Source: Candidatus Danuiimicrobium aquiferis (GTDB lineage Bacteria; Omnitrophota; Omnitrophia; Omnitrophales; Danuiimicrobiaceae). From it: a stretch of DNA of 64,000 nucleotides. Shown here piece after piece: positions 9,456 through 58,900 of the stretch. The DNA lies in assembly GCA_001804285.1 (NCBI GenBank), contig MHFR01000051.1:46926-110925 (forward strand), written 5' to 3'. A program made the translations under genes and the position numbers. Numbering within the stretch: position 1 is the first letter of the stretch; each line of letters opens with the position of its first letter. Below the pieces are notes generated by a model. That model was given only the letters and a program-made list of their open reading frames with translations, searched no databases and was not told the origin of the DNA.

Positions 9456-9533
9456 GTCATCCCCGCAAGCTTTAAGCGGGGATCCAGCAAATCTAAAATG
9501 AACCTGTGGATTCCCGCTTTCGTGGGAATGACA
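9456..9533. repeat. Family-A repeat element, intergenic rmlA/ugd
   Basis: GTCATCCCCGCAAGCTTTAAGCGGGGATCC ... GGATTCCCGCTTTCGTGGGAATGACA. Confidence 0.8.
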
Positions 9534-23532: not shown

Positions 23533-23551
23533 AAAGGAGATTGAGAACTGT

Positions 23552-39908: not shown

Positions 39909-40493
39909 TTACTCATTTTGAGAGGCTTTAATCGCAATGGCCAGGTAATTAGCCACTGCTTTTTTCTTCAAATCGGCCGTTAACTGATTTCTGAAAGAAT
40001 CTGAGCCTTCATATTGCGTTCCGATTTTTTTATAATATTTTTGTAGGTCCTCATAACTCTTATCCTCGATGACGTTGATCTCTTTTCCGTCAGTATCATA
40101 CTGCCAAAGCGCTGCCTGAACGAAACCGTTTTCATCAACCGCACATTTTATGTAATAAGATCCTGCGCCACCCAAGTATGTAAATGCAGTCGAAAGCTCG
40201 TTCGGCGAGACAAAATACTTGCAATCTTTTCTATCGGCCAGAGAACCGTCCGCATACAGCGGAACAGGAATTTGTTCCCCGTTTCGCACTTTACCGGTCT
40301 TGATTGCAATAAAATTATTAATTTTTTGCGCAAGAATAGACTCTATGTTTCGATTTTCGGCGCTGTCCCGAGGTGCGGCCACTTCTTTAATTTCATTTCG
40401 TCCCAATAAAGGATTTTTCGCAAACGCTTCGGGCAACACGCATATTTGCGCTATTCCCGCAATCAGCATTATTTTAAATAAAACATTTTTCAT
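39909..40493 (-). CDS. Hypothetical secreted protein (signal peptide)
   Basis: MKNVLFKIMLIAGIAQICVLPEAFA looks like a signal peptide. No family was recognised. It is flanked by family-B repeat fragments. Confidence 0.5.
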   Translation of the reverse strand: MKNVLFKIMLIAGIAQICVLPEAFAKNPLLGRNEIKEVAAPRDSAENRNIESILAQKINNFIAIKTGKVRNGEQIPVPLYADGSLADRKDCKYFVSPNELSTAFTYLGGAGSYYIKCAVDENGFVQAALWQYDTDGKEINVIEDKSYEDLQKYYKKIGTQYEGSDSFRNQLTADLKKKAVANYLAIAIKASQNE

Positions 40494-41770: not shown

Positions 41771-42171
41771 TATAAATCTTCGAGCAACGTCACAAAATCG
41801 ATGAGCGGTTTTTTCAAATTCTCAGCACGGAAAACCTCAATATGCATTTCAAGCGGATCGGTTCCACTTACCGGCCGGCGCAAAATCCGCCATTTCATAT
41901 CATTTAATTCAATGGGGGGCTTATCGACAGGAGGTTCCCAAGCTTCGCCCATCCGCATGAGTTGAGATTTAGAACCCCGGTAATTTTTGATATGTTCCAT
42001 GGCATTTCGTCCAAGCTGTGTCGCGATCCCAACTTCTGTATATTGAGATACCTCACTTACAGACTGTGTAAACATTTGCAGCAGAGGGACAAAACACAAT
42101 GCCATCAACGAAATAACAACAAGCATTTCAATATACGTAAAACCGCTTTCCGCCGTTCTAAATGCCTTCAT
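41770..42171 (-). CDS. Minor pseudopilin (GspI/J-like)
   Basis: MKAFRTAESG|FTYIEMLVVISLMALCFVPLL. The internal start is used because the ORF-track extension overlaps the next gene. Confidence 0.6.
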   Translation of the reverse strand: MKAFRTAESGFTYIEMLVVISLMALCFVPLLQMFTQSVSEVSQYTEVGIATQLGRNAMEHIKNYRGSKSQLMRMGEAWEPPVDKPPIELNDMKWRILRRPVSGTDPLEMHIEVFRAENLKKPLIDFVTLLEDL

Positions 42172-42535
42172 AAAAAATCCGGATTCTTCTTTGAATATCA
42201 TTGACTTCACCAATTCCGGTAATCGATAAGGTGTTTGGATCGTGAATCGCGAAATAGATTCCTTTTCCCAGTTTTCGCTTGGGAATCGATCCGAATCCAT
42301 CACCATCTCTGTCACGCATGGACTTGACCTCATTAATTCCGGCGGCAAGGCCTGCATCGGCCAAATAAAGAGCTTGAAGACGGTCCTCTTCCAAAGTCAC
42401 ATGAATCGACCGCTCATAAACCGCGCTGACTAACACTCCGCCATAAATTGCAAGCGTCGCCAAAATAATGAGAACGACGATAAGAATGGAGCCCGTTTCT
42501 GAGGATTTACCATTTTGACGGATTTTGTCCTTCAT
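42158..42535 (-). CDS. Pseudopilin-like protein (GspK-N-like hydrophobic N-terminus)
   Basis: GSILIVVLIILATLAIYGGVLVSAVYE ... ALYLADAGLAAGINEV. Length is 125 aa. Confidence 0.5.
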   Translation of the reverse strand: MKDKIRQNGKSSETGSILIVVLIILATLAIYGGVLVSAVYERSIHVTLEEDRLQALYLADAGLAAGINEVKSMRDRDGDGFGSIPKRKLGKGIYFAIHDPNTLSITGIGEVNDIQRRIRIFYEGI

Positions 42536-42956
42536 AATCTTCCCATGCCTTATCTAATTTTAAATCATAATTGACTACAACGTCTGCCTTATCCGTTAAA
42601 TAAAGCCAGCCGCCGGTGTTCGAAAAAGGCTGGTTGCTTGTCTGATTCTTTACGGTGTTATTTCCCCTCTTATCGGTGACTAACTCCGAAGGCATGGAAT
42701 TTAAATACGGTTTTTCAACCCCGACATCATTAAATGTTTGCGTCAAGAGCCCCTCCAATGTCTCGGGATATTTCCCCTCCTTCGCACGGAATAATGAAAT
42801 GCGATTCCGAAGCATGGAAAGATTGCTTTTAGTCGTTACCGCGCGGGCATCAATATCAAAACCGACAAAGTTTGGTACGATTGCCAACGCCAAAATGGCG
42901 ATAATCGCAACGACGATCAAAATTTCAATTAAGGTGAATCCAGATTTACGGGCCAT
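42507..42956 (-). CDS. gspG: Major pseudopilin GspG-like
   Basis: MARKSG|FTLIEILIVVAIIAILALAIVPNFVGF ... LSMLRNRISLFRAKEGKYPETLEGL follows the GspG pattern. Confidence 0.75.
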   Translation of the reverse strand: MARKSGFTLIEILIVVAIIAILALAIVPNFVGFDIDARAVTTKSNLSMLRNRISLFRAKEGKYPETLEGLLTQTFNDVGVEKPYLNSMPSELVTDKRGNNTVKNQTSNQPFSNTGGWLYLTDKADVVVNYDLKLDKAWEDYEGQNPSKW

Positions 42957-43350
42957 CGCTATCTACCTTTCTTTGGTAAGTTAAATAGTCTCTTGTTCCT
43001 TCCATCAAATAAACAGGATGAATGATGGGTGGTTGGGGATATAGAAAAGAAACAACCTCATAAGCTCCGACAGAAAATCTCCCGACAGTATTAAAAATAC
43101 CGCGAATGGGATCAAGCAGAATCATTTTGTCAATACGCGTTTCGACAAGCCCTGTTTCAACCGCTCGCGGCAATTCTAACGGTGAGTAAACAATGTTATA
43201 CAAACCACGCCCGAGCTTTTTTGCCGCTCGAAACACATAAAGATCCTTGCACCAACCGGTTGAACTAAACAAAAATAAAAAAAGCAAAAGCAATGAAATG
43301 AATTTATTTCCCAACCTTGCCATGAGACCGTTCCTTTCTATTATATTCAA
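42946..43350 (-). CDS. Hypothetical exported protein
   Basis: The N-terminus is hydrophobic (FISLLLLFLFLFSSTGW). No family was recognised. It is embedded in the secretion cluster. Confidence 0.4.
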   Translation of the reverse strand: MNIIERNGLMARLGNKFISLLLLFLFLFSSTGWCKDLYVFRAAKKLGRGLYNIVYSPLELPRAVETGLVETRIDKMILLDPIRGIFNTVGRFSVGAYEVVSFLYPQPPIIHPVYLMEGTRDYLTYQRKVDSDGP

Positions 43351-43364
43351 CCTGACCGATTTTT

Positions 43365-43492
43365 GTCATTCCCGCATGTTTTAGGCGGGAATCCATTGTA
43401 CCAATAGATGCTAATTGACTTATGGATCCCCGATTCCCTGGAAATACAGGGCCGGCCCTCGTCTTACCGAGGGAAAGCATTCGGGAATGACA
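43365..43492. repeat. Family-A repeat element (long variant), between the hypothetical gene and gspF
   Basis: GTCATTCCCGCATGTTTTAGGCGGGAATCC ... GGATCCCCGATTCCCTGG...CCCTCGTCTTACCGAGGG...CATTCGGGAATGACA. Confidence 0.75.
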
Positions 43493-43501
43493 CAACTCAA
43501 G

Positions 43502-44725
43502 TTACTGTTTAAAAACTTTGACCAAATTAAACACCGGCATCAAAACTGCCAATGCAATAAATCCGACGACAAATCCCATAAATAAGAGCAACAGGGGTTC
43601 CAGTGATGAAGATAAATTTCTAAGTGTGTATTCCAATTCTGTTTCATAAAACTTGGCAACTTCTCCCAGCATTTCGTCCAATTTTCCGGTATTTTCCCCC
43701 ACCGATACCATCTGTACAACCATCGGCGGGAAAATTTCTGCTTTTTGAAATAGTTCTGCCAAGTCTTTCCCTTGGCTTACGCCAATCCGGATTTGTTCAA
43801 CCGCAGCTTTCATGATGACATTGTTCAGAATACTTTTCGAAATATCAAGAGCCCTCAAAATCGGGATTCCGCTTTTGGTGAGCGCGCTCACGGTCCGCGT
43901 AAATCGCGCAATGACAATTTTCGTATAAAGTTCCCCAAAAACCGGAATCCGTAAAATGACGCCATCAAAAAAAGTCCGTCCTTTTTCGGTGCGGTAAAAA
44001 CCATTTAACAAAACAATTCCTGTCACAGTCAAAACGATAATTAAAAACCAAAACTGGCGAAAAAACGTGCTGGTGTTAAGCAAAATCATCGTGATGAAAG
44101 GCAACTCGCTGTTCGAAGCACGAAAGATGTCTAAGAATTTCGGCACAGCACCGATTAAAAGAAAACCGACCACAAAGAACGCAACACAAAGCAGGATAAT
44201 GGGATACGTAAACGCCGATTGGACCTTTGTCCGGATGTCGAGCTCTTGCATACCGATTTGTGCCAGGCGTTCCAGAACGTCGTCAAGAATACCCGCGGCC
44301 TCGCCGGATTCAATCATTCCGGTGTATAAATTCGAAAACAAATGCGGAAATTTACTGATCGCATCTTTAAACGACCGCCCTTTTTCAATGTCGTTTTTAA
44401 TAGTTTCAATAATGGCTTTAAATTTCGGATTGCGCTCCTGCCATGCAAGACTTTCCAATGCTTTAGGAAGAGGCAACCCTGAACGGACAAGGGTTGAGAG
44501 CTGTCGTGTGAAGTAGATCACATTTTCCCGCCGGACGCCTGATAGAATATCTTGAAGCTGAAAAAAAAGAAAATCTAATTGAGTGGCAGGTTCAATCGAG
44601 AGAACCCGGTACTTCCTTTCACGAAGCACTTCAATCAGCCCGGAACGGTCTTCTGCTCTCGCCACCCCTTTTATGGTTTTGCCGTACGTATCTTGAACCA
44701 CATATTTAAATGCATTCATAGGCAC
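43502..44725 (-). CDS. gspF: Type II secretion / type IV pilus inner-membrane platform protein (GspF/PilC family)
   Basis: Two GspF-type repeats and three TM segments over 407 aa, including LSTLVRSGLPLPKALESLAWQERNPKFK. Confidence 0.8.
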   Translation of the reverse strand: MPMNAFKYVVQDTYGKTIKGVARAEDRSGLIEVLRERKYRVLSIEPATQLDFLFFQLQDILSGVRRENVIYFTRQLSTLVRSGLPLPKALESLAWQERNPKFKAIIETIKNDIEKGRSFKDAISKFPHLFSNLYTGMIESGEAAGILDDVLERLAQIGMQELDIRTKVQSAFTYPIILLCVAFFVVGFLLIGAVPKFLDIFRASNSELPFITMILLNTSTFFRQFWFLIIVLTVTGIVLLNGFYRTEKGRTFFDGVILRIPVFGELYTKIVIARFTRTVSALTKSGIPILRALDISKSILNNVIMKAAVEQIRIGVSQGKDLAELFQKAEIFPPMVVQMVSVGENTGKLDEMLGEVAKFYETELEYTLRNLSSSLEPLLLLFMGFVVGFIALAVLMPVFNLVKVFKQ

Positions 44726-44740
44726 CGCAATTTAGTTGAT

Positions 44741-44875
44741 GTCATGCCCGCACGCTTAAAGCGGGCATCCACAGCTTCTGGATTCCCGCTTTCGCGGGAA
44801 TGACAAAGAAACATATGCCCTTTTACAGATAATTGCTTCAAAGTATTAAACAAATACAGTTATTTAGCCTTCTCT
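44741..44875. repeat. Family-A repeat element + conserved ~55-bp extension, between gspF and the secretin
   Basis: GTCATGCCCGCACGCTTAAAGCGGGCATCCACAGCTTCTGGATTCCCGCTTTCGCGGGAATGACAAAG, then ...CCCTTTTACAGATAATTGCTTCAAAGTATTAAACAAATAC. It is near-identical to 50770..50905. Confidence 0.8.
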
Positions 44876-46620
44876 TTTTTTCCTGCTTTTTTACTTTCGC
44901 GAGAAAATTGACGATCAAACGTTTTGGATAAATAAAGACTGTCGGGATAATTTTTTTTGAGTTTCTGCCACATCGCAGCCGCTTCTGCATGATTCATAAA
45001 AAAGTCAGCATACAACTTCCCAAGTTGATAATAAGCATCATCGGCCCATTCAGAGTCCGGATAATTTCTCGTGATCATCTTAAAGAAACCGACCGCTTCG
45101 CTATTCCTTTGATATTCACTTTTCCCCAATGATTCAATTCCATATTCCTCTAACAAGCGAACCCCCCGATTATATAAAGCCCGGGGAGACAGTTCATCCG
45201 AAACAGGCTTATTCTCTTCCGGTTTCATAGGCCGTACGATATAGGGGGTGATAAATACCGACAATTCGCGGGTCACATATTTGGTGCTTTTATTCCGAAA
45301 TGCTACCCCCACAAGAGGAATACTTCCTAAAATGGGGATCCTTTGCTGAATTACAGACTGGTCATGCCTCGTTAATCCGCCAATCACAACAGTTTGCCCG
45401 TTTTTAACCAGCACTTTTGTGGTAGCTTCCCGAGTATCAATTCGCGGGCCGGCATCGAGCGACTGATTTAACGAGCTCACCTCAGGATGTAATTCGAGTA
45501 AAATATCATCCCCGCCAACGACTCGTGGAATGACTCGTAAAGCAGTACCGATATCGATAAACTTAGTTGTTTCAGTTGTTCCCACTGCCGTTAATGTGTT
45601 TTCGCGAAACGGAAATTTTTCACCGATGATAATTTTTGCTTCTTCCCCATCGAGCGCGCAAATGGTCGGACTTGCGAGTAAAGATGCTTTATTTTTCCGG
45701 ATCAACGCATCAATCGTACTGGTTGCATGACCTTTCCCGAGCGTCAAGCCGTATTTCAGCTGTCCACCGGTTAAATCGGTAGAAGTTTCGGGCATCGATA
45801 GCGCAAAATCAGCTGAGTTATTTGTGGTTGTTGTCGTCGCGGTTGAAGCGGCTCCCGGCGGAAGATAGGTGCGCGCCCCTTCGGGTGTCCAATCCGATTC
45901 AATTCCCTTAAGCATACCTCGTAAATTCGCATTTCCAGTCCAAGTCACCCCCATTGCGGTTAAATCAGAAATTTCAACTTCAATCAGTCTCGCCTCAATC
46001 AATATCTGGTATGGCGCATGGTCTAATTTTTGGGCCTCTTCAAGAAGCGTTTTCATTTTAGTCGGCAAATCCCTAATGATTAACCGATTTTCTTCGTCTA
46101 CAGCTTCAATACTTCCCTTGTTACTCGAAAACGCCGACAACGACGTTTTAACAGAGGATGGTTTTACGTAGGTTACGGGAATAATTTCCGTCGCAAGTTC
46201 GTTTTCTGGCGCCACCACCGTAATAATATTATCTTTCACTCGATAGACATACCCTTTCGACTCCAAAATGAAATCCAGGGCATCCTCTAAACGGACATCT
46301 TTTAAGGTGATGGTGACGGTTCCCTTCACATCTTCTCCGGCTACGATATTTAAATCGAACGACTCCGCAAGCCCTCGTAAAGCGCCTCGAATATCAGCCT
46401 CCTGCACGTCCAATGAAATACGTGTATCTAAAATATTAACATTTTTTTCTTCTTTAATTTCCTCAGCGAAGAGGACTCCTGTTTTAACCTGGAATAGGCA
46501 TAACAATAGCGATAAAAACAATGGCAGAACTTTTCTTTGTCCCAAACAGACTGTTTTTGCAATGGTTCGCAAGAAGGATTTGATTTTTGCTTTGGATTTC
46601 ATTTCCATTGTTTTCTCCAT
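44860..46620 (-). CDS. Secretin (GspD/PilQ family) with C-terminal TPR-like extension
   Basis: The secretin C-domain is VVIGGLTRHDQSVIQQRIPILGSIPLVGVAFRNKSTKYVTRELSVFITPYIV. There is a signal peptide. The C-terminus YYQLGKLYADFFMNHAEAAAMWQKLKKNYPDS looks TPR-like. Confidence 0.85.
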   Translation of the reverse strand: MEKTMEMKSKAKIKSFLRTIAKTVCLGQRKVLPLFLSLLLCLFQVKTGVLFAEEIKEEKNVNILDTRISLDVQEADIRGALRGLAESFDLNIVAGEDVKGTVTITLKDVRLEDALDFILESKGYVYRVKDNIITVVAPENELATEIIPVTYVKPSSVKTSLSAFSSNKGSIEAVDEENRLIIRDLPTKMKTLLEEAQKLDHAPYQILIEARLIEVEISDLTAMGVTWTGNANLRGMLKGIESDWTPEGARTYLPPGAASTATTTTTNNSADFALSMPETSTDLTGGQLKYGLTLGKGHATSTIDALIRKNKASLLASPTICALDGEEAKIIIGEKFPFRENTLTAVGTTETTKFIDIGTALRVIPRVVGGDDILLELHPEVSSLNQSLDAGPRIDTREATTKVLVKNGQTVVIGGLTRHDQSVIQQRIPILGSIPLVGVAFRNKSTKYVTRELSVFITPYIVRPMKPEENKPVSDELSPRALYNRGVRLLEEYGIESLGKSEYQRNSEAVGFFKMITRNYPDSEWADDAYYQLGKLYADFFMNHAEAAAMWQKLKKNYPDSLYLSKTFDRQFSRESKKAGKKEKAK

Positions 46621-46653
46621 ATACTTTTATCTCGCCCGAGTTTTAAAAATGAT

Positions 46654-47502
46654 TTATGATTTCTTTTTGCTGAGCGCCAGAACGTATTCCGTACCGCTTT
46701 CCGAAAACCAAACGCCATCGCGTTCGATGCGAACTAATTTTTTGTTGTCAATCAGGGCCCCCACTGACACAATCTTCCCATCAATCAAAGCAACCGGTTT
46801 TTTTGTGTTCCACACAATCATGGTCACCTGATGATTCCCCGGGAGTGTATTATCACGCGGCTTATTTCCCAAAAGAAACGGGTCTTGTTTCGGCGGAACA
46901 ATCTGCGCGTCCGTTTCCTTGGCTTTTACTTTCGAATGACCGCTCAGAATCGAAAAAAGGTTAACGGTTACCAGAGGTAAAGGGTTCACCTCAGAATCGG
47001 ATTCCATGCTCAACGATTGCACGCCAAGGAGAATCTTTCCTTTTTCAATTCGTTCAAGGTACGACGCAACATCAGTGTACCCGCCATAAAACTTAACTTC
47101 GATGTGAATTGCATCAGCAATCCCGCCTTCTTCCGAACGCGCGATCGTGGGTTCTACGGAAACAAATTTTGTATCCAGCCCCTGAAACGCTGCCGTGAGT
47201 CCTTCGAGAAGCTCGGCCATATCTTTCCGTGAAGGTAGTTTATCTTCCATTTGTGTCACTTCTTCATTCATTTTATTAAACTCATCATACCGTTCCGAAT
47301 AAATTTTTTGATCCTTGTTATAGCCTTCTCTTTTGTTTTCCACGGTTTGCAATTCACTTTTTATCGCAAGGGTTTCCTGTCCTATTATTTTCTTTTTATG
47401 TTCGATCGGCTTCACAATGTTAGAAAAAAATACATAAAAGATAATCGCATAAAGCGCCAAGATAATCGCAGCTTGTGTATTCCTGCTCATTCGCACAACC
47501 AT
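46654..47502 (-). CDS. PilO/PilP-like (or GspM-like) bitopic assembly protein
   Basis: An N-terminal TM segment and a coiled coil precede a periplasmic domain. Position is between pilN and the secretin. Confidence 0.55.
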   Translation of the reverse strand: MVVRMSRNTQAAIILALYAIIFYVFFSNIVKPIEHKKKIIGQETLAIKSELQTVENKREGYNKDQKIYSERYDEFNKMNEEVTQMEDKLPSRKDMAELLEGLTAAFQGLDTKFVSVEPTIARSEEGGIADAIHIEVKFYGGYTDVASYLERIEKGKILLGVQSLSMESDSEVNPLPLVTVNLFSILSGHSKVKAKETDAQIVPPKQDPFLLGNKPRDNTLPGNHQVTMIVWNTKKPVALIDGKIVSVGALIDNKKLVRIERDGVWFSESGTEYVLALSKKKS

Positions 47503-47512
47503 TGTGTCGTCC

Positions 47513-48094
47513 TCAAATATTTTTTAGTTCAAATGAAATCTCGAAAAAAATAACACTTTCCTTGTTGACCGTATTCGATTCGGTCCGGACAAAAGTAGCG
47601 TTTGAAAAATACTCACTCTCATTTAAATTGGCGATGAATTTGCTCACATCGGCATTGCTATATGTTCCGCCGAACACTTGACACTTTGAAGTTTCCAATA
47701 TCAATTTATCCGCCCACGCCCGGTCCGGCAGTGATTGCTTGAATTCTGAAAGAATTTGTGACCATTGGGTTCGCGTCACATCTAATCGGGCTAATTGTTC
47801 GCGTTTTTTTCTTAAAACCACAATTCTGTCTTCAATATTTTTTAGCTGGTCGGCTGAACTTTGTTTCGTACTTTCGGCCTCTTCGATTTGGGCACTGATG
47901 TGACTTAGTTTTTCATCTACGGCCTGCTTCTTTTGCTTCCCATAGTTTAAACTAATGGTCGAGTAAATCGCGATCAAAGCCATAATCACAACAAGGACAA
48001 CAGCCCCTATCACCGCCTGCATCAACAGCCCTGACTCAACAAGAGCTTTTTTTCCGGATGCGAACTCTGGTGGTATCAGATTAATTCTTTTCAT
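47513..48094 (-). CDS. pilN: PilN-like (GspL-periplasmic-like) bitopic protein
   Basis: MKRINLIPPEFASGKK ... plus a TM segment and a coiled coil. The INLLP-type N-terminus is the PilN signature. Confidence 0.7.
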   Translation of the reverse strand: MKRINLIPPEFASGKKALVESGLLMQAVIGAVVLVVIMALIAIYSTISLNYGKQKKQAVDEKLSHISAQIEEAESTKQSSADQLKNIEDRIVVLRKKREQLARLDVTRTQWSQILSEFKQSLPDRAWADKLILETSKCQVFGGTYSNADVSKFIANLNESEYFSNATFVRTESNTVNKESVIFFEISFELKNI

Positions 48095-48136: not shown

Positions 48137-49420
48137 TCATGGCATACCCAGTCCAAATGGTAATATTGCCCATTCGTCTATTTTCAGGGCTAATCCTAAT
48201 GCGACCGGTGAAAGTGTTTTCTTTTTATCAAAGCCATTCAGGGTTTTAAATTTCTCATCAAGGTGGTACGGTTTCCATAAATCGATCGGGTTGATATCTA
48301 CATTCAAACTTCCACAAACATATTCCCTGAAACCGGTCATGTCTGAACTGCCGCCTAATAGATAGGCCCGATGAACTTTCCCACCTTCGGATCCAACTTC
48401 TTTTGAGAATGAAAACTGAAGTGAGCGGTTCACTTCTGCTAATAATTTATTTATTTCGTCCAAGAGTACCCCGCTTACAGCGAAAGCTTCATCGCTTAAA
48501 TTCGATTCCTTAATTCCCGCTTTAGAGATAGCCGACAAACCATAAGTCTTTTTTAACTCTTCTGCTTTTGAAAAATTGCAGTTTAATTTTTCGGAAAGTG
48601 CTACCGAAAACCGGTTTCCGGCTATCGGAATCAATCGCCCAAATAGGATGCGTTGACCTGCAACAATTAATAAGCTGGTGAAACGCGCTCCAACATCAAG
48701 AATGACGACACGTTCATTTTTTTCCCAACGCTCTGTCCTGAGCAGCGCTTGCCAGCTTGCCAGCGGATTGGTTTCGATAGAAAGGACGCGAAAGCCCGCG
48801 CTTTGAACGACTTCAAATTGACGATAGATTAATTCTCGGGGTATTGCTACCAAAAAAAGTTTTTGAATGCTGCTCGCATTATCGGAATTCTGTTCAGGAA
48901 TATAATCAAAGAAATTGGTTTTAGGATCAATCAAGTGTTGATCGCTCATCTCTTTTTTGATCGATTCCCGCACTTCCTCATTTGTCCCTTTAGGCACTGC
49001 CATCTCCCCCAGAAAGACAGATTGATCATAAACACTAATTCCCACGCGTGTCTTTGGTTTTATCCTCGAAGAAATTTTAACTAAACAATTAACCACTTCT
49101 TTCATGGGATCCTCAGGCTGGCTGCCGTCCGATAATTTTTGAAGGGGTTCAACCTGATAATCTTTAATGCAGATCCCTTTACTTTTTTTGCTGAGAAGGA
49201 TAAATTTAATAGAATCCCCACCGACATCAATCCCCGCAAATTCATTGTGATAAACCGCATTCTCAAACCCTGCCCGTATGGCTTGAAAAAATCCGGGCCC
49301 GCTTTTTAAAGGGGTGCTTTCAATAGATTTTGAGCCTTCCTGTTTTTTCAGCTTTCCCGAAGTGTCAGGATCAAATATCCGCGAAATCAGCTTCTTTGAA
49401 TCAATTCGATTTTGTGACAA
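48137..49420 (-). CDS. pilM: PilM-like actin-fold ATPase (GspL-cytoplasmic-like)
   Basis: FAGIDVGGDSIKFILL ... is an actin-like ATPase fold. There is a ~60-aa N-terminal extension. Confidence 0.75.
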   Translation of the reverse strand: MSQNRIDSKKLISRIFDPDTSGKLKKQEGSKSIESTPLKSGPGFFQAIRAGFENAVYHNEFAGIDVGGDSIKFILLSKKSKGICIKDYQVEPLQKLSDGSQPEDPMKEVVNCLVKISSRIKPKTRVGISVYDQSVFLGEMAVPKGTNEEVRESIKKEMSDQHLIDPKTNFFDYIPEQNSDNASSIQKLFLVAIPRELIYRQFEVVQSAGFRVLSIETNPLASWQALLRTERWEKNERVVILDVGARFTSLLIVAGQRILFGRLIPIAGNRFSVALSEKLNCNFSKAEELKKTYGLSAISKAGIKESNLSDEAFAVSGVLLDEINKLLAEVNRSLQFSFSKEVGSEGGKVHRAYLLGGSSDMTGFREYVCGSLNVDINPIDLWKPYHLDEKFKTLNGFDKKKTLSPVALGLALKIDEWAILPFGLGMP

Positions 49421-50321
49421 GGGCCAAAACCTCCTCGGCTAACTGCTGATACTCAATCGCGCCCAACGAAGTTGGCGCATACGTGATCACCGATTGCTGG
49501 ACCATCGGTGACTCAATTAATTTCACATTGTTGTGAATGACCGTCTTGAACATTTGACTTCCGAAATAATCCCTCAGCGCATGTAACACTTCTTCTGCGA
49601 TTTTGATCCGCTTATCATAAAGGGTCGCAAGAATGCCCAATGTCTCGAGTCCGGGATTAAATTGCTGTTTAACGGATTCGATGGTCCGGAAAAGCTCCTT
49701 CATGCCTTCCAACGCATAATAATGAGTCTGCACGGGAATTAAGACTTTTGATGCATAGCACAATGCATTTAATGTCAATAAATTCAATGTCGGAGGACAA
49801 TCTAATAAAATGAAATCGTAATGTTGCTGAACATTCTGCAATTTAGACCGAAGGGCTTGCTCTCCTGCTTGTATATCGGCCAGCTCAAGTTGCGCGCTTG
49901 CCAAACGGCTCGCAGAAGGCAAAATATGAAGCCCCGGAATCTGACATGGCCGCATCACATCCCCAAAAACCACATTGGGATTGACAAGCAGATCGTAAAC
50001 CGATCGCTGCAACTTATCAACAGATACGCCAAGCCCTAATGTCGCATGTGCTTGCGGATCTAAATCCACCACCAAAACCTTTCCACCCTTTATGGCCAAA
50101 GCAGCGCTAAGATTGACAACCGTTGTGGTTTTCCCGCAACCGCCTTTTTGGTTCATCACAGTTATCGTCACGGGCCGGCTTCCCTCCGGAAGTCCAAAAG
50201 AACTTTGAAGATCTCGCTTTAACTCCCCTTCACGGAGCCACCCAAAAATACTTCTGAATTTGAACCCTGCTTTTTTTGGGGGTTCCTCTGTAGAAATCGT
50301 ACTCTCCAGTAATTCACTCAT
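49401..50321 (-). CDS. ParA/MinD-family P-loop ATPase
   Basis: The deviant Walker A is NQKGGCGKTTTVVNLSAALAIKGGKVLVVDLDPQA. The internal ATG overlaps the merR stop (ATGA). Confidence 0.75.
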   Translation of the reverse strand: MSELLESTISTEEPPKKAGFKFRSIFGWLREGELKRDLQSSFGLPEGSRPVTITVMNQKGGCGKTTTVVNLSAALAIKGGKVLVVDLDPQAHATLGLGVSVDKLQRSVYDLLVNPNVVFGDVMRPCQIPGLHILPSASRLASAQLELADIQAGEQALRSKLQNVQQHYDFILLDCPPTLNLLTLNALCYASKVLIPVQTHYYALEGMKELFRTIESVKQQFNPGLETLGILATLYDKRIKIAEEVLHALRDYFGSQMFKTVIHNNVKLIESPMVQQSVITYAPTSLGAIEYQQLAEEVLALVTKSN

Positions 50322-50605
50322 ATGGAATCCTCCTTGGAACCCTTGACTTTCAATGCAGCCGCGCACAGTGTATAGCCTTCGTTCAAAAGCTGCTTAATCC
50401 GCAGCAATACGTTAATATCTGATTGCGAAAACCTTCTATATTCATACGAACCGAATTGTTCATAAATGGGCTTAACGATTCCAAGCTGTTCCCAATAATA
50501 AAGTTGCCGGCTTGAAACTCCAACGAGCTTTGCTGTCGAAGAAATACTGTAGTACAGCGCACCTGAATGGACTATGTCTAACATCTGTTGCAAATTTTGC
50601 GTCAT
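50318..50605 (-). CDS. MerR-family HTH transcriptional regulator, minimal (95 aa, no effector domain)
   Basis: YSISSTAKLVGVSSRQLYYWEQLGIVKP is a MerR-type HTH. Confidence 0.7.
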   Translation of the reverse strand: MTQNLQQMLDIVHSGALYYSISSTAKLVGVSSRQLYYWEQLGIVKPIYEQFGSYEYRRFSQSDINVLLRIKQLLNEGYTLCAAALKVKGSKEDSI

Positions 50606-50769
50606 AATAGTTAACCTTTTGTTTTACAAGTATGTCTATGGTTTGACATCCTTGTTATATGCGTGAATCGACCGAAGGCAGAGAAACTTTATTGATTTTT
50701 ATTTGAAATGGGGTGTTTACCCGGAGGCTGCCATTGGTAATTGTTTAGCGTTCTGAAGTGGCAAACACG

Positions 50770-50905
50770 CCAGGTTCGTGTCATGCCCGCATGCTTAAGG
50801 CGGGCATCCACAGTTTCTGGATTCCCGCTTTCGCGGGAATGACAAAAAATCAGAGGCCCTTTTACAGATAATCGCTTCAAAACGCTAAACAAATACTGCC
50901 ATTGA
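50770..50905. repeat. Family-A repeat element + conserved extension, between merR and gspE
   Basis: GTCATGCCCGCATGCTTAAGGCGGGCATCCACAGTTTCTGGATTCCCGCTTTCGCGGGAATGACAAAA ... CCCTTTTACAGATAATCGCTTCAAAACGCTAAACAAATAC. Confidence 0.8.
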
Positions 50906-50920
50906 AGTGATTACTAAAAT

Positions 50921-50967
50921 CCCCTCACCCCTACCCTCTCCCCGTGGGAGAGGGTAGGGGTGAGGGC
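50921..50967 (-). terminator. Perfect 21-bp-arm GC-rich palindrome directly 3' of the gspE stop (candidate intrinsic terminator / family-C repeat)
   Basis: CCCTCACCCCTACCCTCTCCC cgtg GGGAGAGGGTAGGGGTGAGGG. On the minus strand it is followed by ATTTTAGTAATC. Confidence 0.4.
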
Positions 50968-50974
50968 AACCGGA

Positions 50975-52681
50975 CTACGAGTCCTGTGTCACTCTCAGGA
51001 CCTCGTCGATGGTGGAAACGCCCTGCTGGGCTTTGAGGAGGCCTTCTTCTTTTAAGGTTTTCATGCCAAGCGCAATCGCTTTTCTTTTAATGACTTCCGC
51101 GGATTCTTTTTTAACAATAGACGCGCGAATATCATCCGTTGGAACCATGAACTCAAATATGCCCGTTCTTCCCTGATAACCCGTTCCTTTGCATCGGTCA
51201 CAACCGACCTTTTCATAGAACTCGGATTTAACATTCTTTGCTCCGATGTGACCGCTCACTTCCATTAATAATGCTTTTTCAGGGAGATACGGTTTTCTGC
51301 AATGAGTACACAGCTTACGAACAAGCCGCTGCGCGATGACACAGCTTAGAGATGACGAAATCAAAAATGGCTCGACCCCCATATCAAGCAACCTGGTAAT
51401 GGCTGCCGGCGCATCGTTGGTGTGTAAGGTGCTTAGCACCAGATGCCCCGTCAATGCGGCTTGAATGGCAATCGTTGCCGTTTCCAAATCACGGATTTCA
51501 CCGATCATAATCACATCGGGATCCTGTCGCATAATCGAACGCAATCCCTTGGCGAAGGTCAACCCGCTTTTCAGATCAATTTGTGATTGCCGGACTCTTT
51601 CCAACCGGGACTCAACCGGATCTTCTAAGGTAATGATATGCTTCTCGACGGAATTAATTCGGTTTAAACAAGCGTATAACGTGCTTGTTTTTCCGCTACC
51701 GGTCGGACCCGTGACTAAAATAATTCCGTGCGGATATTGAAGGATTTTTTCGAATTGAATCAATGCCTGTTGCTGCATCCCGAGATCCTCAAGCGAAATT
51801 ACAGACTCTGACCGGTCCAAGACACGGATGACCACATTTTCACCATAAATGGTCGGGAAGGTGGAGATACGAAGATTCACGTCTCTATCTTTCATCTGAT
51901 ATTGAATCCGTCCGTCTTGAGGCAGCCGTTTTTCGGCAATATCCATATTGGCCATAATTTTGATGCGGGAAATAATTGACGATTCCATCGATTTCGGAGG
52001 CAGGGGCGAATAATCGTACAAAACCCCGTCAATCCGGTAACGCACGTACAATGCCTTTTCCGCAGGCTCCAAATGAATATCGCTTGCATGATTTTCGAGT
52101 GCTTTTTCAATCAGTAAATTGACAATATTAACAGCGGGCGCATTCTGGGTTGATTCGCCTATGATTTTATCTTTCGATTCTCCGGAAACTGAACCGCCAT
52201 CTCCTCCGATTCCACGGATGGCTTTCCCAAGATGATCTTCCGTCCCAAAGAGTTGATTGATTTTTCGGAGAATGGCTTCTTCATCGGAAAAAACCGGAGA
52301 AATTTCGCACTTGGCATATTGTCCGAGGCGGTCGAGCAGAACGACATCAAGAGGATCAATCATGGCCATAGTCAAAACGTTCTTTTCTTTTTTGATCGGT
52401 AAAACTTTGAAGTAACGGATTAATTTTTCAGGAATCAATTTAATCGTTTCGGGATCAAGAGAAGGAATTTGATCCAAATCAAGGAATGAAATGCGGTAAA
52501 ATTCACTGATCAGCTTAAGAACTTCTACTCGGGAACGACCTTCGAGACACGGCAAAACATCAATAAAACGTTTTCCTGCTTTACCGCGTTCTTCAAAAAG
52601 CTTGTCTTTTTCGGGTTGCGTTAACATATGCCCCGAGGAAAGTTTTTCTTTCAGATACGTTTCTAATTCCTTTTCAATCAC
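50975..52681 (-). CDS. gspE: Type II secretion / type IV pilus assembly ATPase (GspE/PilB family)
   Basis: N-terminal MshEN-like domain, Walker A GPTGSGKTSTLYA, the Asp/His boxes, and the tetracysteine motif CTHCRKP...CDRCKGTGY. Confidence 0.9.
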   Translation of the reverse strand: MIEKELETYLKEKLSSGHMLTQPEKDKLFEERGKAGKRFIDVLPCLEGRSRVEVLKLISEFYRISFLDLDQIPSLDPETIKLIPEKLIRYFKVLPIKKEKNVLTMAMIDPLDVVLLDRLGQYAKCEISPVFSDEEAILRKINQLFGTEDHLGKAIRGIGGDGGSVSGESKDKIIGESTQNAPAVNIVNLLIEKALENHASDIHLEPAEKALYVRYRIDGVLYDYSPLPPKSMESSIISRIKIMANMDIAEKRLPQDGRIQYQMKDRDVNLRISTFPTIYGENVVIRVLDRSESVISLEDLGMQQQALIQFEKILQYPHGIILVTGPTGSGKTSTLYACLNRINSVEKHIITLEDPVESRLERVRQSQIDLKSGLTFAKGLRSIMRQDPDVIMIGEIRDLETATIAIQAALTGHLVLSTLHTNDAPAAITRLLDMGVEPFLISSSLSCVIAQRLVRKLCTHCRKPYLPEKALLMEVSGHIGAKNVKSEFYEKVGCDRCKGTGYQGRTGIFEFMVPTDDIRASIVKKESAEVIKRKAIALGMKTLKEEGLLKAQQGVSTIDEVLRVTQDS

Positions 52682-52971: not shown

Positions 52972-55900
52972 TTATTTCTTTTCCGGCGGTTTCATTTCAG
53001 CCGGCATTTCTTTCCATGTAACAATCCTCAAATTCCGGCTCCCGACGGATCCGAAATTAATAACGCCCCTCTTTTCAGAAACAGTGACGGCCGATTCCGG
53101 CATCACAGCCGCACCCACGTAAATCGTTTCAACGGCCGAAGATTTCATCTCGAAAGTACAAACTCCATTTTTCATCACAAATTCCGTTTGCTTTGGCAGC
53201 GTTAACGACGGAAGCAGCGAATCTCCGGTTTGCCCGACCGGCTTTCCTTCCGGCAAATAATATTGAACTGTCACACGCGTCGAATCGGTTTTAATCACTT
53301 GCCCCTTGGAATCAACCACCTTTATCGTCACCTTCACCGGCTCGTTCAGCGCTCCGTAAGACGATTCAATCACGATAGTCGCTTTAACCACCTCTGCTTT
53401 AGGAGACGATTCTCCCTCGGCATCAGCATCCTCGGCTGTAATTGAAAACTCAGGCAAATCTCCGGGCCCGATGATGTTGAAAACGTGGATCCCCTGATCA
53501 GAACCTGTAAATTCATATTCTTCGGGTAGCCCCAACTCGACTCCGGAAGATAGTCCAATCTTCCCGGCATAGTTCGTGATTGCCTGATTATTGAAATCAA
53601 ACGCACTCACGGTTGCCGTGAATTTCTCTCCGTCATAATAAGTATAAAGATCAGCTTGTGCCCGCGAAGCATCCGCCGGCTTTGAAAGCTCGATCTGAAA
53701 CTTGGAAGCAACAAACGAGACGGATTCGGATGTTCCGAAAAGCAATTCCGGATATTGTGTATCGATTACTTTCAAAGATACTTCCCCCCAGGCGTTAAAC
53801 CGGTTGGTCAATGTAACGGTACCGTTTGATATTGAACTCAAATTGGTTACGGCAAGATTTTCGACTGTTCCGCCGTCTTCAGTCACAACCGTCACATCTG
53901 CTGCGCCGTCATAATTCGAAGTCACTTCCCCGCTTTGATTTACCGCCGTCACCGTCATTTCAAAATCTTTCCCGACGGCGAATGATTTTTCATCTACCAC
54001 CACTTTATATTCATACGGAATAACCGTGAGATTTCCCGAGACGCCCTTAATCACCCCGTCCGCGCTGTCACTTGCCAGCACTTGAATGATTCCGGCATCG
54101 TCATATTGAAGCGAGGCCGTGGCAATCCCGCCTGAAAAGTTGGACACGACGGCCGGCACGAACTGCTTGGTCCCGGCCGTAGGGTTAATATATTGCACTC
54201 CCAAATTGGCCGTTCCGCTGTAAGACACAACCGCTTTATTTCCGCCCGCCCCGGTTTCAACAGCAGAAATCCTTACATCAAACGGCGTGCCGGCTTTTAC
54301 CAGTCCTTGAGTGAGAAGTTCTATCAAATAACTCACTGAACCAAAAGTCACCGTATCCGTGCTGGTATCCGTACTGTCATTCGAATCCGTATAGGTCACC
54401 GTCACCAAATCTCCTCCGCCGCTCACCTCAAGGGTCCCGTTATCTACATGCCCCGTCCGGTTTTGTACGGTCGGAAATGGATTATACGGTACGGAACTCG
54501 TATTGATGAAAATACCGCTATCGACATCGCTTTCAAGCAAGTTAATTTCCTCAGAATCGCCTGTTGCCGGATTGCTCACCGTTACTTTGATCGCATCTTT
54601 AACTAACGGATCCCGATTCCGGTCCGCATCCAGAACTTTCACATAGACATAGTCACCGATCGAATAATTCGACACTTCGATTCCGCTCACATTCACAAAA
54701 TGGATCTCCGATCTGGTTGAAGTCACAGTAATTTCACTTGATAAAACGGGGGCGATTAAATCATTCCCGACCAGTTCCGCTTTCAATTTAATCACGCCGC
54801 CTTCGTTGTAAGACACGTTTGAAAAAGTGGCCACACCGCCGGTGACGGTGATCGTGTTATCTTCATCGAGTGCACTTGATGACAAAGTCCCCGGAGCTAC
54901 GGTTGTTCCGTCCGAAGCCAAAACTGCCGTCAGCTTAATCCGGGAGATTGAATCCGAAGAAATGGCGTTTCCGGCTTCGTCCAAGATCGAAACCACCGGC
55001 TGAGTCGTAAATACACTTCCAGCAAAAATCGATGCCGGGGCCGGTGCGGTCGAAAACTGGATTGCCGAGGCGGTCAGTGAACCGACCACAAGATCTAAAT
55101 CATAATCGGCGCTTCCCGTCGAATCATACGTCCCGTCACTTGCATCCAAAGAGACCGTTTCGGCAGTATAGAGCGTTACATCCGTTTCCGCCTTACAACT
55201 TCCTCCGCCGCACAGAAAATCCAGCAACGTCGAAGAGCCGATATTGACCACAATCCCGTTCTTGTCCCGCGCAAAAGGCGTTTTCCCGTTCGTTGCCGTC
55301 GGGCCGCTAAACGTAATGGATTTTTCCCCGGAATAAGTCGCTAAAATCGGAACGCCGCCATTGTCGTATGGCGTGACGCGGACCGTTATCGTATTTCCGC
55401 TTGCGATCGTTCCCGGACTCGTAGACGTCACCACGAAATGGTCGAGGGATTGATGGAATAGCCAATTCGTATTATTTCCCGAATTGGTACCGCTATAGCA
55501 ATCAATTATTTTTTCCGATTTTTGATCTTTGACGTCCACATCGAAACACGCAAACGTTCCTGTTCCGGACCACAACCGCTGAACGCCTTCCACCGTCGAC
55601 CGGATTTTAATTACATCGGAATCTCCGCCGCCGGAAGCGCCGCCCGCGCCGTTCAGACTCACTGTTCCCGCATTCACGAGCCCGCCTTCACCGATCGTAA
55701 TGGTGGCTTCGTCCGATGAACTGCCGCCCGCATGGGTCCATGCGCCGTCTGTTTCAATCACCACTTTATAAGCATTTAACTCAACATTTTCCTCCTGAAC
55801 CAGTTCGCCGTCTAAAATGGTGAGTGTCCCATTCACCACCAGATTTTTTGTGGACACATTCACATCGTCCGCATCGCCAACGCCTGACTTTTCGATCACT

Positions 55901-58900
55901 AAATTGTAGAATGAATTCCCGGTTGATATCAGCTCGGCTGCCGCTGTTCCCGTTAATGTCACTGTTTCCGTTGTATGCGCAAAGGTCCCCGTCGCAAAAT
56001 TCCAGTTACCGGACACCGTAATATCTTTTCCGTTCGGATCAAATGTTCCCGTTGATGAATTGGTAAAATCTCCGTTCACCACCAATGCATCCTGCAGCTC
56101 AACCGTTCCCGTTCCGCTTTCCGTAAAATTGTAAAGTTCAGCGCCGTTTAGTGTCATGGCAACCGAACCGCTGTCGTTCACTTCAATCGTCGAATTTCCG
56201 GGGGTGAATGTTGCATCCGGATCGATTTCAAGTTTTCCGGCAACGGTGATGATGGTATTTTCAGATCCGGCATCGGATGCGTCCAACGTTCCCGCAACCG
56301 TCAAGCCGTCAGAACCGGTAATTTCGATATCGTAACCATTCGTGACTAACGTATCCGTCTCATTAATCGTAACCGATTCTGTCAGAATGTCAGATCCGAG
56401 CTCTACCGTTTCAGGAGAAGCTCCGATCACTAATTTCCCGAGGTTCTGTTTCGTGGTGTTGCTATCCGTAATCGTCACGTTGCCTTGGACCCATGTTTTC
56501 CCGTCACCTGTCGAAGGCGTAAATGAAGCGCCGTTCGCAATCGTCATATCCCCCTTCACAATCAGATTCTGATCGTCATCCGCCACAAACGTACCGCTCG
56601 TCACCGCAAAGTCACCTTCCACCGTCATTTCGCTTGAATCGTCAAATTGATATGTTCCGCCGCCGCCAAACACGACGTCTTTAAACACATTTCCTTTCGG
56701 CGCAATCTTGTGCGTTCCTGTTCCGTTAAAATGGACAGGCGCATTGTTGTGTGTGAATGTAGATCCGTTAGCGAGAGAAAAATCTCCCGTCACGTCCATC
56801 GGTTTCCCTTCAACGCCCACCAACGTCCCGCGCATGTCCACATCCGGAAATTCGGTTTCTTCACTGGCCTTGAAAACCGTTCCCGGCCAAATAAAAAGCT
56901 TTAATCCCTCCCCAAAGAACAATTTCTTTTGGCCATTGGTTGTCCTGGGCGTAAATCCCATATATTGCCCAAAGGTGGGATTCGTTCCCGTCGCGCAACC
57001 GCCCGCCGGATTATTGGGATTCGGCACGCACGCCTCGCCGCCATTAAATCCTTGATGCATCCTGTCAAAATCGATGATCGGAATGACAGAACTGTATTCA
57101 TTGCGGATAATCACGTGATTCAGGTAAATATCCATTCCGCTCTTGCTTCCTGCGTCCGTCACAAACGTTAAAACACCTTTTTTGAAATTAGACGGCGGCA
57201 CATAATTTCCGTTAAACGGATCGCAACTTGTGCATGTAGGTTCAACAAAAACGGTCACCAAATCGCCGGCAAGAACAAACATATGCATTTCATATTGGCC
57301 GTTTTGATTCGTGACAATATGATTTCCCAAACCGAACCCATAAGCAAACGCGCCTTTGTCCGCCAAATTCACCCGCGCACCGGCAAGCGGCGTCACGCCC
57401 GCATCGGAATAAACCGTTCCCTGAAGTACAATCTCTACCCCGAATTTCCAATTCATATTCCGTCCGCCGTCAATCGCATGCTGTCCGTACGTAATCACCG
57501 GCGCCGGATTGACATTTAATGAATCCGTAATGCTGATCCAACTAACCACTCTCGTCCCGCGCGGGTCGATTTTCCATTGGGTTTCAGGCTCACTGCTCAC
57601 CAGCGAAATATTTCCCGTTTCCGTGCCCTTCAGATCCGTCGTGTGTAAAACAATCTGCAGTTTACCGGCTTCAAACGTGAGCGTATCCGCCACCGCCACA
57701 TTTTTCTTTAAATCATAGAAAGTCGTCTCGCCCAATATCGATTGGCCGGTTCCGTTTAGCGTTACCATGTTCTGCCGCGGTAAAAATACATCCCGATTAA
57801 CCCAGTTGCCCGCTACATTTATTGGGAAGTTTCCGTCTAATTGGGCATCCAACGTGCCGCCGGTAATGGTTAAATCGCCGCTGACGGTTAGTGGCCCTTG
57901 CAGAATAAAAATAGCGGCCCCGCCCCCGTCATCAAACGTTAAATCATGAAATGCGGAAATTCCGGGCGCAAGTTGAAGCTGACCGGCCTGCGCATTTAAC
58001 AAGACTTTGCCGGCCTGCGCATTAAACGCTCCCGCATTCAGCCACTTTCCGCCCACATTGATCTGAAAACTGTTCTCGCTCGCATCCAATGTTCCGGCCG
58101 TAATATTCAAATCACCGGCCACAACAAGAGGCGCCCCAAGTTGAAACGTGTCTTGATTTGTTTCGGATGGATCATTGACCGTTAAATGATGGAACGTCGT
58201 TGCAATATCCGTAAGAATGTGCGTCGTTGCCGCCGAATCTCCGTCACCGACAAAAGTCACGATGGAACCTTCATGGTTTGTTAAGAGGACTGAAAGGCTT
58301 TCACTGCCTTGAAGTTGAATATTGCCGGAATTATTAATGGCTGTGGCAGACGAAATGTTGTGCCCGTTCAGATCGAGCGTCCCGGCCGTCAGAGTCAGTT
58401 CTCCGTCAACGTCCAAATGATTCGTATCAAGCTGTACCGTTCCGGTGGCTTTATTAATGACAACCGTGTTGAAATCCTGACTGTCTTCCGTCCCGCCACT
58501 AATGATTTTTGTGGTATTTGGGCCGGCAATCGGATTGACGAAATTAACCACTCCCGTGCCGGACACAAAACTTCCCTGGTTCGTCCAATCGCCGGCAACA
58601 AAAATATTATAATTAAGTCCGTCAGCCGTAAAGGATGCGGCAGGTTTAATCGTAAAACTTCCATCCACACGAAGCGTGCCGCCCGCCGGTGCAAAGGTTC
58701 CGCTGATTTCCAATCCGCCTGTTCCGACAATTACATTTCCGTTCGGCGAAAATGTCGAACCGGCATTGATCAGGAGTTTAACACCATTTTCGACCGTCAG
58801 GATTTTCGGGATTCCGTTGTCCGCGTTGTAAAGCATATTCACGGCATCCTGGTCGTTGTCGTAATCAATCAGATTCGGAATCGCAACCGGATTGGCCCCG

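Follow-up and report, generated by a model that had tools for sequence, protein, structure and literature searches.

A Soj-Like ParA ATPase Conserved With PilM in a Type IV Pilus/Type II Secretion-Like Gene Cluster of Omnitrophota

A Conserved ParA–PilM Gene Pair in a Pilus/Secretion Cluster

In this study, we analyzed a stretch of 64,000 nucleotides from the metagenome-assembled genome of Candidatus Danuiimicrobium aquiferis (Omnitrophota; contig MHFR01000051.1, positions 46,926–110,925 of the forward strand; hereafter "the window," numbered from its first letter), in which a Soj-like ParA ATPase of 306 amino acids (aa; 49401–50321) is encoded between a minimal MerR-type protein and the platform protein PilM. 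The best reading of the data is that this ATPase is a built-in accessory of a PilMNO–secretin–GspF machine, i.e., a machine resembling the type IV pilus or type II secretion system (T2SS). More specifically, we lean, by a narrow balance, toward the interpretation that a Soj-derived ParA is dedicated to the PilMNO–secretin machine and acts through PilM on its placement, its number, or the timing of its assembly, with MerR as the regulator of the operon. The main known means of positioning large assemblies in bacteria are ATPases of the ParA/MinD superfamily. A 2024 review of their cargoes includes, for pili and secretion systems, only the MinD-like TadZ/CpaE, BcsQ, and VirC1 (PMC11407121), and our full-text search of the literature found no description of a PilM-linked ParA. 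The evidence points to a PilM-linked, Soj-like ParA as a previously undescribed positioning or assembly factor.

The gene neighborhoods of ParA relatives carry most of this argument. The relatives sampled ranged from 67% down to approximately 47% identity to the window ParA and spanned the listed homologues; the public contigs and loci compared are designated here by L-numbers. In all 13 distinct contexts, the parA relative lay inside a pilM cluster, and in 11 of them it was directly upstream of pilM; in the other two, parA followed pilM and two genes without an identified family. These contexts span Omnitrophota and, according to the labels of the source records, Planctomycetota/Phycisphaerae. 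The order GspE–MerR–ParA–PilM–PilN–PilO–secretin–GspF was found in the window contigs and in L007, L087, L088, and L089, and the order of the secretin, GspF, and pseudopilin region of the window was also kept in the last three. In a distant lineage with a ParA of 47% identity (L133), the order was PilS–PilR–pilin–…–MerR–ParA–PilM, and a soluble HisKA/HATPase kinase was encoded 5′ of ParA–PilM in L008, L009, L130, and L131. ParA–PilM occurred with no identified regulator in L134 and L135, and two Planctomycete-type contigs (L132 and L139, one of them labeled Phycisphaerae) had the order PilM–x–x–ParA–x–secretin. The conserved unit is ParA–PilM and not MerR–ParA, because the gene upstream of parA varies and because minimal MerR proteins occur beside pilD/pilB without ParA. 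The original prediction, made from the window alone, had treated the ATPase and MerR as one module and had proposed conserved parA–merR–pilM synteny as a test: the link of parA to the pilM cluster held in every context sampled, whereas merR was variable. With ParA relatives in the pilM cluster in 13 of 13 contexts, the ATPase is not a local insertion.

A scan with an alignment of four PilM sequences returned a single close locus along with about 40 distant PilMs (20–29% identity; gut and rumen metagenomes), and the latter, which served as a control, had no ParA in their loci. The second PilM paralogues of L009 and L130 also had no ParA. When contigs were scanned with the single window ParA, most of the matches were Methanobrevibacter ParAs that share VMNQKGGC, and L007–L009 were the only useful loci. 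The identical ParA protein is present in 17 public contigs, where the gene calls agree with those in the window.

The soluble histidine kinase found 5′ of parA–pilM in other Omnitrophota is approximately 380 aa in length (L008, 534–1679; L009, 8736–9893; L130, 5862–6998; L131, 5828–6982). Its C-terminal region matches GGDEF weakly, and neither a sensor domain nor a membrane segment is obvious. Small genes for GIY-YIG nucleases are located between pilM and pilN in L134 (2310–2597) and upstream of gspE in L087 (7152–7463), and their presence in or near the cluster suggests mobile homing-type elements.

Classification of the ATPase

Residues 52–226 of the window ParA matched the Pfam family AAA_31 (E = 2e-57), and the Walker A motif NQKGGCGKTTT occupies residues 57–67, with the deviant QKGGCGKTTT and its signature lysine, K59, read from the sequence at 50121–50150. 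None of the NCBIfam models reached its cut-off: the scores were 112.9 (cut-off, 180) for ParA_partition, 104.6 (348) for RepA, 60.7 (725) for SopA, 49.6 (212.9) for minD_bact, and 19.5 (154) for the CpaE-homologue model, and the MinD, CpaE-homologue, and BcsQ models all scored far lower than ParA_partition. The top match with a solved structure was Soj of T. thermophilus (E = 9e-60). An AlphaFold2 (AF2) model built on an alignment of 85 sequences had an overall predicted local distance difference test (pLDDT) score of 89 and was confident for residues 41–306. In a Foldseek search with this model, the structures of Soj and chromosomal ParAs aligned at template modeling (TM) scores of 0.95–0.97 (root mean square deviation, 1.1–1.7 Å; 40–47% identity), compared with 0.74–0.85 and 16–27% identity for MinD, FlhG, FleN, and BcsQ. 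Classification by profile models had been set beforehand as a check, and on the sequence and the predicted fold the ATPase is of the Soj/ParA type, and not MinD, FlhG, or TadZ.

The other identities considered were rejected on several grounds. For MinD and FlhG, the low model scores and TM values were accompanied by a C-terminus (…EEVLALVTKSN) that ends in a confidently predicted helix without an extra tail. For TadZ/CpaE, the N-terminal 40 residues are predicted to be disordered, the genomic context is PilMNO–secretin–GspE/F, and the model score was 19.5 against 154. For BcsQ, both the TM score and the identity were within the MinD-like range, far below those of Soj.

The residues expected of a functional ParA are present: K59 of Walker A, D86/D88, and D174 of Walker B are invariant in the family alignment. 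The Walker A cysteine is also invariant among the 120 ParA relatives listed; it was considered as a marker of the family, but it also occurs in ParAs with no link to PilM, so it is not diagnostic. Nonspecific DNA binding by Soj of B. subtilis needs R189 and R218 (PMC3778016, PMC10711552). The equivalent residues in the window ParA are R238 and K267, and across the family (n = 120) the R189 position is R in 116 proteins and the R218 position is R or K in 102. The residues for nonspecific DNA binding are retained, and binding itself is predicted. In M. xanthus, the ParB peptide enters a hydrophobic pocket that lies at the dimer's edge in ParA and is formed by six hydrophobic residues (PMC12462528). 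At these positions the window ParA has L, L, L, L, S, and F; five of the six are hydrophobic, namely L145, L179, L181, L184, and F221, and the pocket positions are mostly hydrophobic across the family. The changes specific to the family relative to Soj are found in KGGCGKT, PQAHAT, and VQTHYY (V14C, N44H, and CE150–151TH in B. subtilis numbering).

An ordinary chromosome-partitioning Soj, or a moonlighting copy of one, that lies beside pilM by chance would account for part of these results: the nearest structures and sequences are those of Soj and chromosomal ParAs, the ParB pocket is kept together with the DNA-binding residues, and the source records call the relatives "chromosome partitioning protein." However, we regard this explanation as quite improbable. 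The gene lies within the pilM cluster in 13 of 13 contexts, and no ParB family was found within 6–10 kb in the gene-family tables of 11 loci (L007 and L008, which were compared only with the window's own proteins, do not enter this count). No parS site was found at ≤ 3 mismatches in the 64-kb window, and no second ParA was found there. Furthermore, the ParA_partition score was below the 180-bit cut-off, the changes listed above are specific to the family, and canonical Soj proteins were split from the PilM-linked ParAs in a rough neighbor-joining tree (76% bootstrap). The original prediction had named a robust grouping with Soj proteins with a parB/parS elsewhere as evidence against itself. 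This applies in part: the ATPase is indeed Soj-type, but parB was not found in the 11 loci, nor parS in the window.

Among the other ParA relatives, those of Syntrophaceae/Desulfomonilia (L027, 9992–11068; L081, 193–1287) carry a C-terminal extension of approximately 100 aa with the same ending, and have no pilM nearby. In L027, the extension is a CBM48 glycogen-binding module. The placement of some ParA-CBM48 proteins in the neighbor-joining tree was unstable, and ParAs of this type may position glycogen granules.

N-Terminal Tails of ParA and PilM

The first 50 residues of the window ParA (50172–50321) form an N-terminal tail, which contains the motif KKAGFKFRSIFGWL at 50235–50276 and the motif LPEGSRP. 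An N-terminal extension had been anticipated, but its length is approximately 50 aa rather than the 60 aa first estimated; a GTG at 50366, which would lengthen the tail to approximately 65 aa, was rejected as the start because it has no support among orthologues. In the AF2 model, the pLDDT was approximately 50 for residues 1–40, which are predicted to be disordered, and 86 for residues 41–50, and LPEGSRP packs on the core. The tail motifs KKxWFxhKxhFxGh and LPxxLRP (h, hydrophobic) are kept in 21 orthologues, and similar aromatic amphipathic N-termini occur in other ParA subfamilies. The basic/aromatic motif resembles the membrane-targeting helix of MinD.

PilM itself (48137–49420; PilM_2, E = 1e-20), an actin-like platform protein, has an N-terminal extension of 62 aa. 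Comparison of its orthologues identified the conserved motif IDSKKLISRIF (49373–49405), in which K10 and F16 do not vary among six orthologues and the window motif reads KKLISRIF. In ParA-adjacent PilMs, the extension has a median length of 76 aa where it is measurable, and 10 of 11 carry the motif h-h-x-x-h-F; in PilMs that have no ParA, paralogues from the same genomes among them, the extension is approximately 10 aa and has no such motif. The PilM tail correlates with ParA adjacency, and not with MerR. A second tail motif, [SA]LF[KRQ], lies approximately 20–30 residues past the first in most ParA-adjacent PilMs outside the window subgroup (extensions at, e.g., L008, 2543–2750; L009, 10686–10990; L133, 8046–8300), and SSLLG takes its place in the window subgroup.

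In M. xanthus, ParB binds ParA via a peptide that follows h-x-[KR]-x-h-x-x-h-h (PMC12462528). A pattern search found the same arrangement in the PilM tails of L008, L009, and L130 (for example, LGKVFDRLF), the tail of L135 fits by hand alignment, and the window subgroup fits in part. A loose regular expression for a ParB-like motif did not discriminate, and the hydrophobic-moment values were uninformative. A more specific form of our interpretation is that PilM acquired a ParB-like N-terminal peptide that recruits and activates a dedicated Soj-derived ParA, so that the basal body of a pilus/T2SS-like machine would be genuine cargo for ParA, with the nucleoid as the surface on which it is positioned or counted. 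We consider this a possible but doubtful proposal. The membrane-targeting sequence of MinD is KKGFLKRLFGG, and the N-terminus of MreB is similar; judged by their motifs, the ParA and PilM tails could be either partner peptides or membrane anchors.

The MerR Protein and the Arrangement of the Operon

All the genes of the cluster are encoded on the minus strand. The MerR-type protein (50318–50605, 95 aa) is encoded immediately 5′ of parA, the stop codon of merR overlapping the start codon of parA in ATGA (ATA TGA/ATG AGT). The parA ATG at 50321 is preceded by a Shine–Dalgarno sequence, AAGGAGG, 6 nt upstream, and the gene ends at the stop at 49401. The TTG start of pilM, at 49420, overlaps the 3′ end of parA by 20 nt and is preceded at 9 nt by GAGGAGG; this start is supported because the N-terminal peptide that it encodes is conserved in orthologues and because the same 20-nt overlap occurs in L088. 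Read from the sequence, the two overlaps and the strong Shine–Dalgarno sequences indicate co-translation. The gene calls agree with the original prediction in all these respects, namely the ATGA-overlapping pair of MerR and deviant-Walker-A ATPase, its co-orientation with pilM, and the 20-nt overlap. They also bear out a MerR of 95 aa without an effector domain, in which only 11 residues follow the MerR_1 domain.

MerR_1 covers residues 19–84 of this protein (E = 5e-14; bit score, 52.6; cut-off, 21.6). Its membership in the MerR type, as judged from the protein sequence, lies in an N-terminal winged helix-turn-helix (HTH); the long dimerization coiled coil and the C-terminal effector domain are absent. 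The best sequence matches in the PDB were the minimal regulators GlnR/TnrA and CvkR (Alr3614). A single-sequence search returned only five proteins, and the orthologue set was therefore taken from a profile search: among the matches listed, the orthologues form about 45 clusters of 77–141 aa (most of them 92–109 aa), and those with names belong to Omnitrophota. An exhaustive profile search gave 1004 relatives, the long ones being MerR-PAS-GAF sensor proteins, some of which are among the closest relatives of the window MerR. These long relatives were checked as candidate MerR–ParA fusions and proved to be MerR-PAS-GAF; no ParA-domain fusion was found among 232 MerR matches or the 150 best representatives. 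Related MerRs of 80–85 aa, in KSB1 and other lineages, head a pilD–kinase–response regulator–HDOD–pilB cluster with no ParA. In L136, L137, and L138 (KSB1 and a related lineage; at approximately 6001–6249), for example, an 82-aa minimal MerR that is 48–49% identical to the window MerR lies in the conserved block SMC–GWxTD–MerR–prepilin peptidase–histidine kinase–response regulator–HDOD–PilB. MerR is best read, from its relatives and gene contexts, as a transcription factor of the pilus operon that is interchangeable with other regulators; it does not appear to be an obligate partner of ParA, because its slot holds a kinase or no regulator elsewhere and because minimal MerRs occur without ParA.

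It might be argued instead that the two proteins form a regulatory pair, with ParA as a nucleotide-dependent partner or antagonist of MerR (or, elsewhere, of the kinase) that tunes the transcription of the pilus operon, like FleN–FleQ. The ATGA coupling of merR and parA is kept in orthologues, and in most of the directly adjacent loci the slot 5′ of parA holds a regulator, either MerR or a histidine kinase. In addition, the nearest solved relatives of MerR, GlnR and TnrA, lack an effector domain, and both are controlled by a protein partner. This explanation is nevertheless unlikely: ParA is kept near pilM without an adjacent regulator in L134, L135, L132, and L139, minimal MerR relatives exist without ParA, MerR–ParA fusions were absent from the matches described above, and the PilM tail tracks ParA and not MerR.

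A partition-like DNA tether was also considered, in which MerR would be an adaptor analogous to ParB and ParA the motor that brings a DNA site to the envelope machine, similar to VirC1–VirC2 in type IV secretion or to a split type Ia ParA. Such a tether would explain why ParA is coupled in translation to a small DNA-binding protein and why a weak dyad lies 5′ of merR. The RepA model TIGR03453 aligns with the window ParA from position 106 and leaves approximately 105 model positions unmatched, and in RepA and type Ia ParAs it is this N-terminal region that carries an HTH. However, most ParA–PilM lineages have no MerR, no conserved ParB-like activating peptide was found in MerR, and the regulator-first gene order is unlike that of parA–parB. 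Moreover, only 19 of 72,556 plasmids had even a weak match to the window MerR, and its relatives are sensor-linked transcription factors, so we judge this the remotest of the explanations discussed here. The synteny pattern weakens each of the three rival explanations, i.e., the chance chromosomal Soj, the regulatory pair, and the DNA tether.

The spacer between gspE and merR, which is read on the same strand, is 369 bp in length (50606–50974) and contains hairpins and a candidate operator dyad. A terminator scan detected a terminator-like hairpin with a 20-bp stem after gspE (50922–50966), and a pair of REP-like hairpins lies at 50782–50841; this pair recurs in the secretin–gspF spacer, and other places in the window have single copies. 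Because the terminator-like and REP-like hairpins separate gspE from merR, merR is probably the first gene of a transcription unit extending through pilMNO and further. A dyad, ACAAGGATGT-N10-ACATACTTGT, lies at 50626–50655, and a weakly conserved block was found 5′ of merR in four orthologous loci, at a level barely better than that of shuffled controls and at sites that shifted with word length; the dyad and the block are candidate operator sequences only. A MerR-type promoter with a 19-bp spacer and a dyad, which was to be looked for upstream of the pair, was not found, nor was any sigma-70-like pair with a 16–20-bp spacer 5′ of merR in the four orthologous loci; the promoter consensus of the host phylum may differ. 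No sigma-54 promoter scored above chance upstream of merR, and the spacer contained no Rfam family.

REP-like GC hairpins, CATTCCCGCGAAAGCGGGAATC, often paired with GATGCCCGC…GCGGGCATG, are dispersed in intergenic spacers of the window (50782–50841, 44743–44802, 1707–1728, 6645–6715, and 9509–9530), two of which are inside the secretion cluster. An open reading frame (ORF) of 67 aa at 50689–50892 was rejected as spurious, since it is a translation of these repeats.

Proposed Mechanism and Comparison With Known Systems

Under the interpretation that we favor, a ParA dedicated to the PilMNO–secretin machine, ATP-bound ParA dimers would sit on the nucleoid via the retained DNA-binding residues, and possibly also on the membrane via the basic/aromatic tail. 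The dimers would then contact PilM, the cytoplasmic platform protein, by way of the conserved motif in its N-terminal tail, ATP hydrolysis would free them, and the place, number, or timing of machine assembly would be set by this cycle. We liken the cycle to those by which TadZ/CpaE acts on Tad pili, FlhG on flagella, and McdA or PpfA on cytoplasmic cargoes. MerR, which heads the operon, would most likely control its expression, and the soluble histidine kinase would fill the same slot in other lineages. Every protein–protein and protein–DNA contact in this scheme is inferred, as is the cellular role. Spatial positioning or regulation of the machine by a ParA–MerR module was the functional part of the original prediction; the synteny with pilM supports the link, and the function itself would follow only from the scheme above.

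Several points weigh against this interpretation. First, the ParA–PilM contact is putative. The strict ParB-like pattern, with a lysine at −6, was present in only 8 of the 11 adjacent PilMs, the first hydrophobic position of the pattern is missing in the PilMs of the window subgroup, and the tail motifs fit membrane-targeting amphipathic helices equally well. Second, ParA lacks an N-terminal tail in the Planctomycete-type clusters, where its gene is also not the direct neighbor of pilM. Third, the ParA relatives were picked from a word-indexed search that favors proteins sharing NQKGGCGKTT, and the PilM-linked ParAs were separated from all outgroups with a weak bootstrap of 30%. Finally, the window ParA may have an added role in chromosome segregation, since the search for parB covered the loci only, and a promoter or operator for MerR was not definable.

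The proposed system shares features with several known systems. TadZ is a MinD-like protein with an N-terminal receiver-like domain, and Tad loci are not known to carry PilMNO. As in the window, TadZ/CpaE is an ATPase of the ParA/MinD superfamily encoded in a pilus cluster, and it is needed for placing and assembling the Tad pilus machine (PMC11407121); in contrast, the window ParA is Soj-like, has a disordered tail of 50 aa instead of a domain, and is encoded beside PilM. With Soj/ParA–ParB–parS, the window ParA shares its fold, 40–47% identity, the deviant Walker A motif, the DNA-binding residues, and a mostly kept partner-peptide pocket. It differs in having pilM as its conserved neighbor, the added tail, the Walker A cysteine, and the PQAHAT and VQTHYY motifs, and in that parB was not found in the 11 loci tabulated and parS was not found in the window.

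Protein cargoes offer a further comparison. In McdA–McdB, PpfA–TlpT, PomZ–PomXY, and ParC–ParP, a ParA-type ATPase is adapted to a protein cargo, with a short activating peptide displayed by the cargo or by an adaptor (PMC11407121, PMC12462528); the proposed cargo in the window is an envelope-spanning machine, the putative adaptor peptide is on PilM, and no separate adaptor gene is evident. FlhG/FleN–FleQ also combines an ATPase of the same superfamily with effects on an envelope machine, in number or placement, and on the activity of a transcription factor. However, FlhG/FleN is MinD-like with a C-terminal membrane helix (TM, 0.74–0.80; 16–20% identity to the window ParA), and FleQ is an enhancer-binding protein, whereas the transcription factor in the window is a minimal MerR. 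The latter resembles GlnR/TnrA and CvkR, which are MerR winged-HTH proteins without the usual effector domain, and CvkR represses its own gene cluster (PMC9938897); the similarity is only 30–40% over the HTH, and the window MerR, at 95 aa, is shorter than full-length GlnR and CvkR and lies in a pilus/secretion operon.

A type II secretion-like locus with gspD, gspE, gspF, and pilin-like genes has been described beside the giant genes of Omnitrophota (West-Roberts et al. 2023, bioRxiv 10.1101/2023.11.21.568195), and the window cluster is that secretion locus next to a giant gene. Neither the text of that study nor that of a 2026 survey of complete genomes mentions ParA, MerR, or PilM. Our results add conserved, unannotated components to the secretion locus that presumably acts on the giant proteins of Omnitrophota with a predatory or epibiotic life; these bacteria are uncultured, and gene context is the chief source of hypotheses about them. 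If our interpretation is correct, a Soj-like ParA hard-wired to PilM would add a new class of cargo, and the PilM tail peptide would provide a handle on the coupling between an envelope machine and a cytoplasmic gradient. If PilM is in fact a ParB-like recruiter, this would be the first positioning system of the ParA type, and not the MinD type, for such machines. The system would then have a wide distribution in Omnitrophota and Planctomycetota and be tied to the machines beside giant genes associated with predation.

Other Genes in and Around the Cluster

Upstream of the merR spacer, the GspE/PilB-type assembly ATPase (50975–52681) matched T2SSE (E = 3e-138) and has an N-terminal MshEN domain (E = 2e-16); the NCBIfam models for GspE and PilB both scored slightly under their cut-offs. 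Downstream of pilM, Pfam matches identified PilN, PilO, a secretin (STN domain and TPR tail), and GspF, followed by a conserved ORF and four pseudopilin-like genes (40532–48094). MshEN has been described as a c-di-GMP-binding module, and the window also contains two tandem genes for GGDEF diguanylate cyclases, of which one includes a GAF domain, together with a sigma-54 gene (13190–16086 and 18265–19701). Given the MshEN domain of GspE and the GGDEF genes in the window, control of the machine by c-di-GMP is plausible.

A giant repetitive gene lies upstream of gspE (52972–63966; L001, 1–7350) and runs off the end of the window; on the full contig of 137 kb, its product is 9218 aa in length. Its position beside the cluster agrees with the published association of giant genes with the type II secretion-like locus in Omnitrophota. 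No Pfam match at E = 1e-5 was obtained for an ORF of 1064 aa at 23483–26677. Two conserved cluster ORFs also had no Pfam match, one of 134 aa in the gap between gspF and the pseudopilin genes (42946–43350) and one of 194 aa after the last pseudopilin gene (39909–40493), and the positions of both are kept in L087 and L088.

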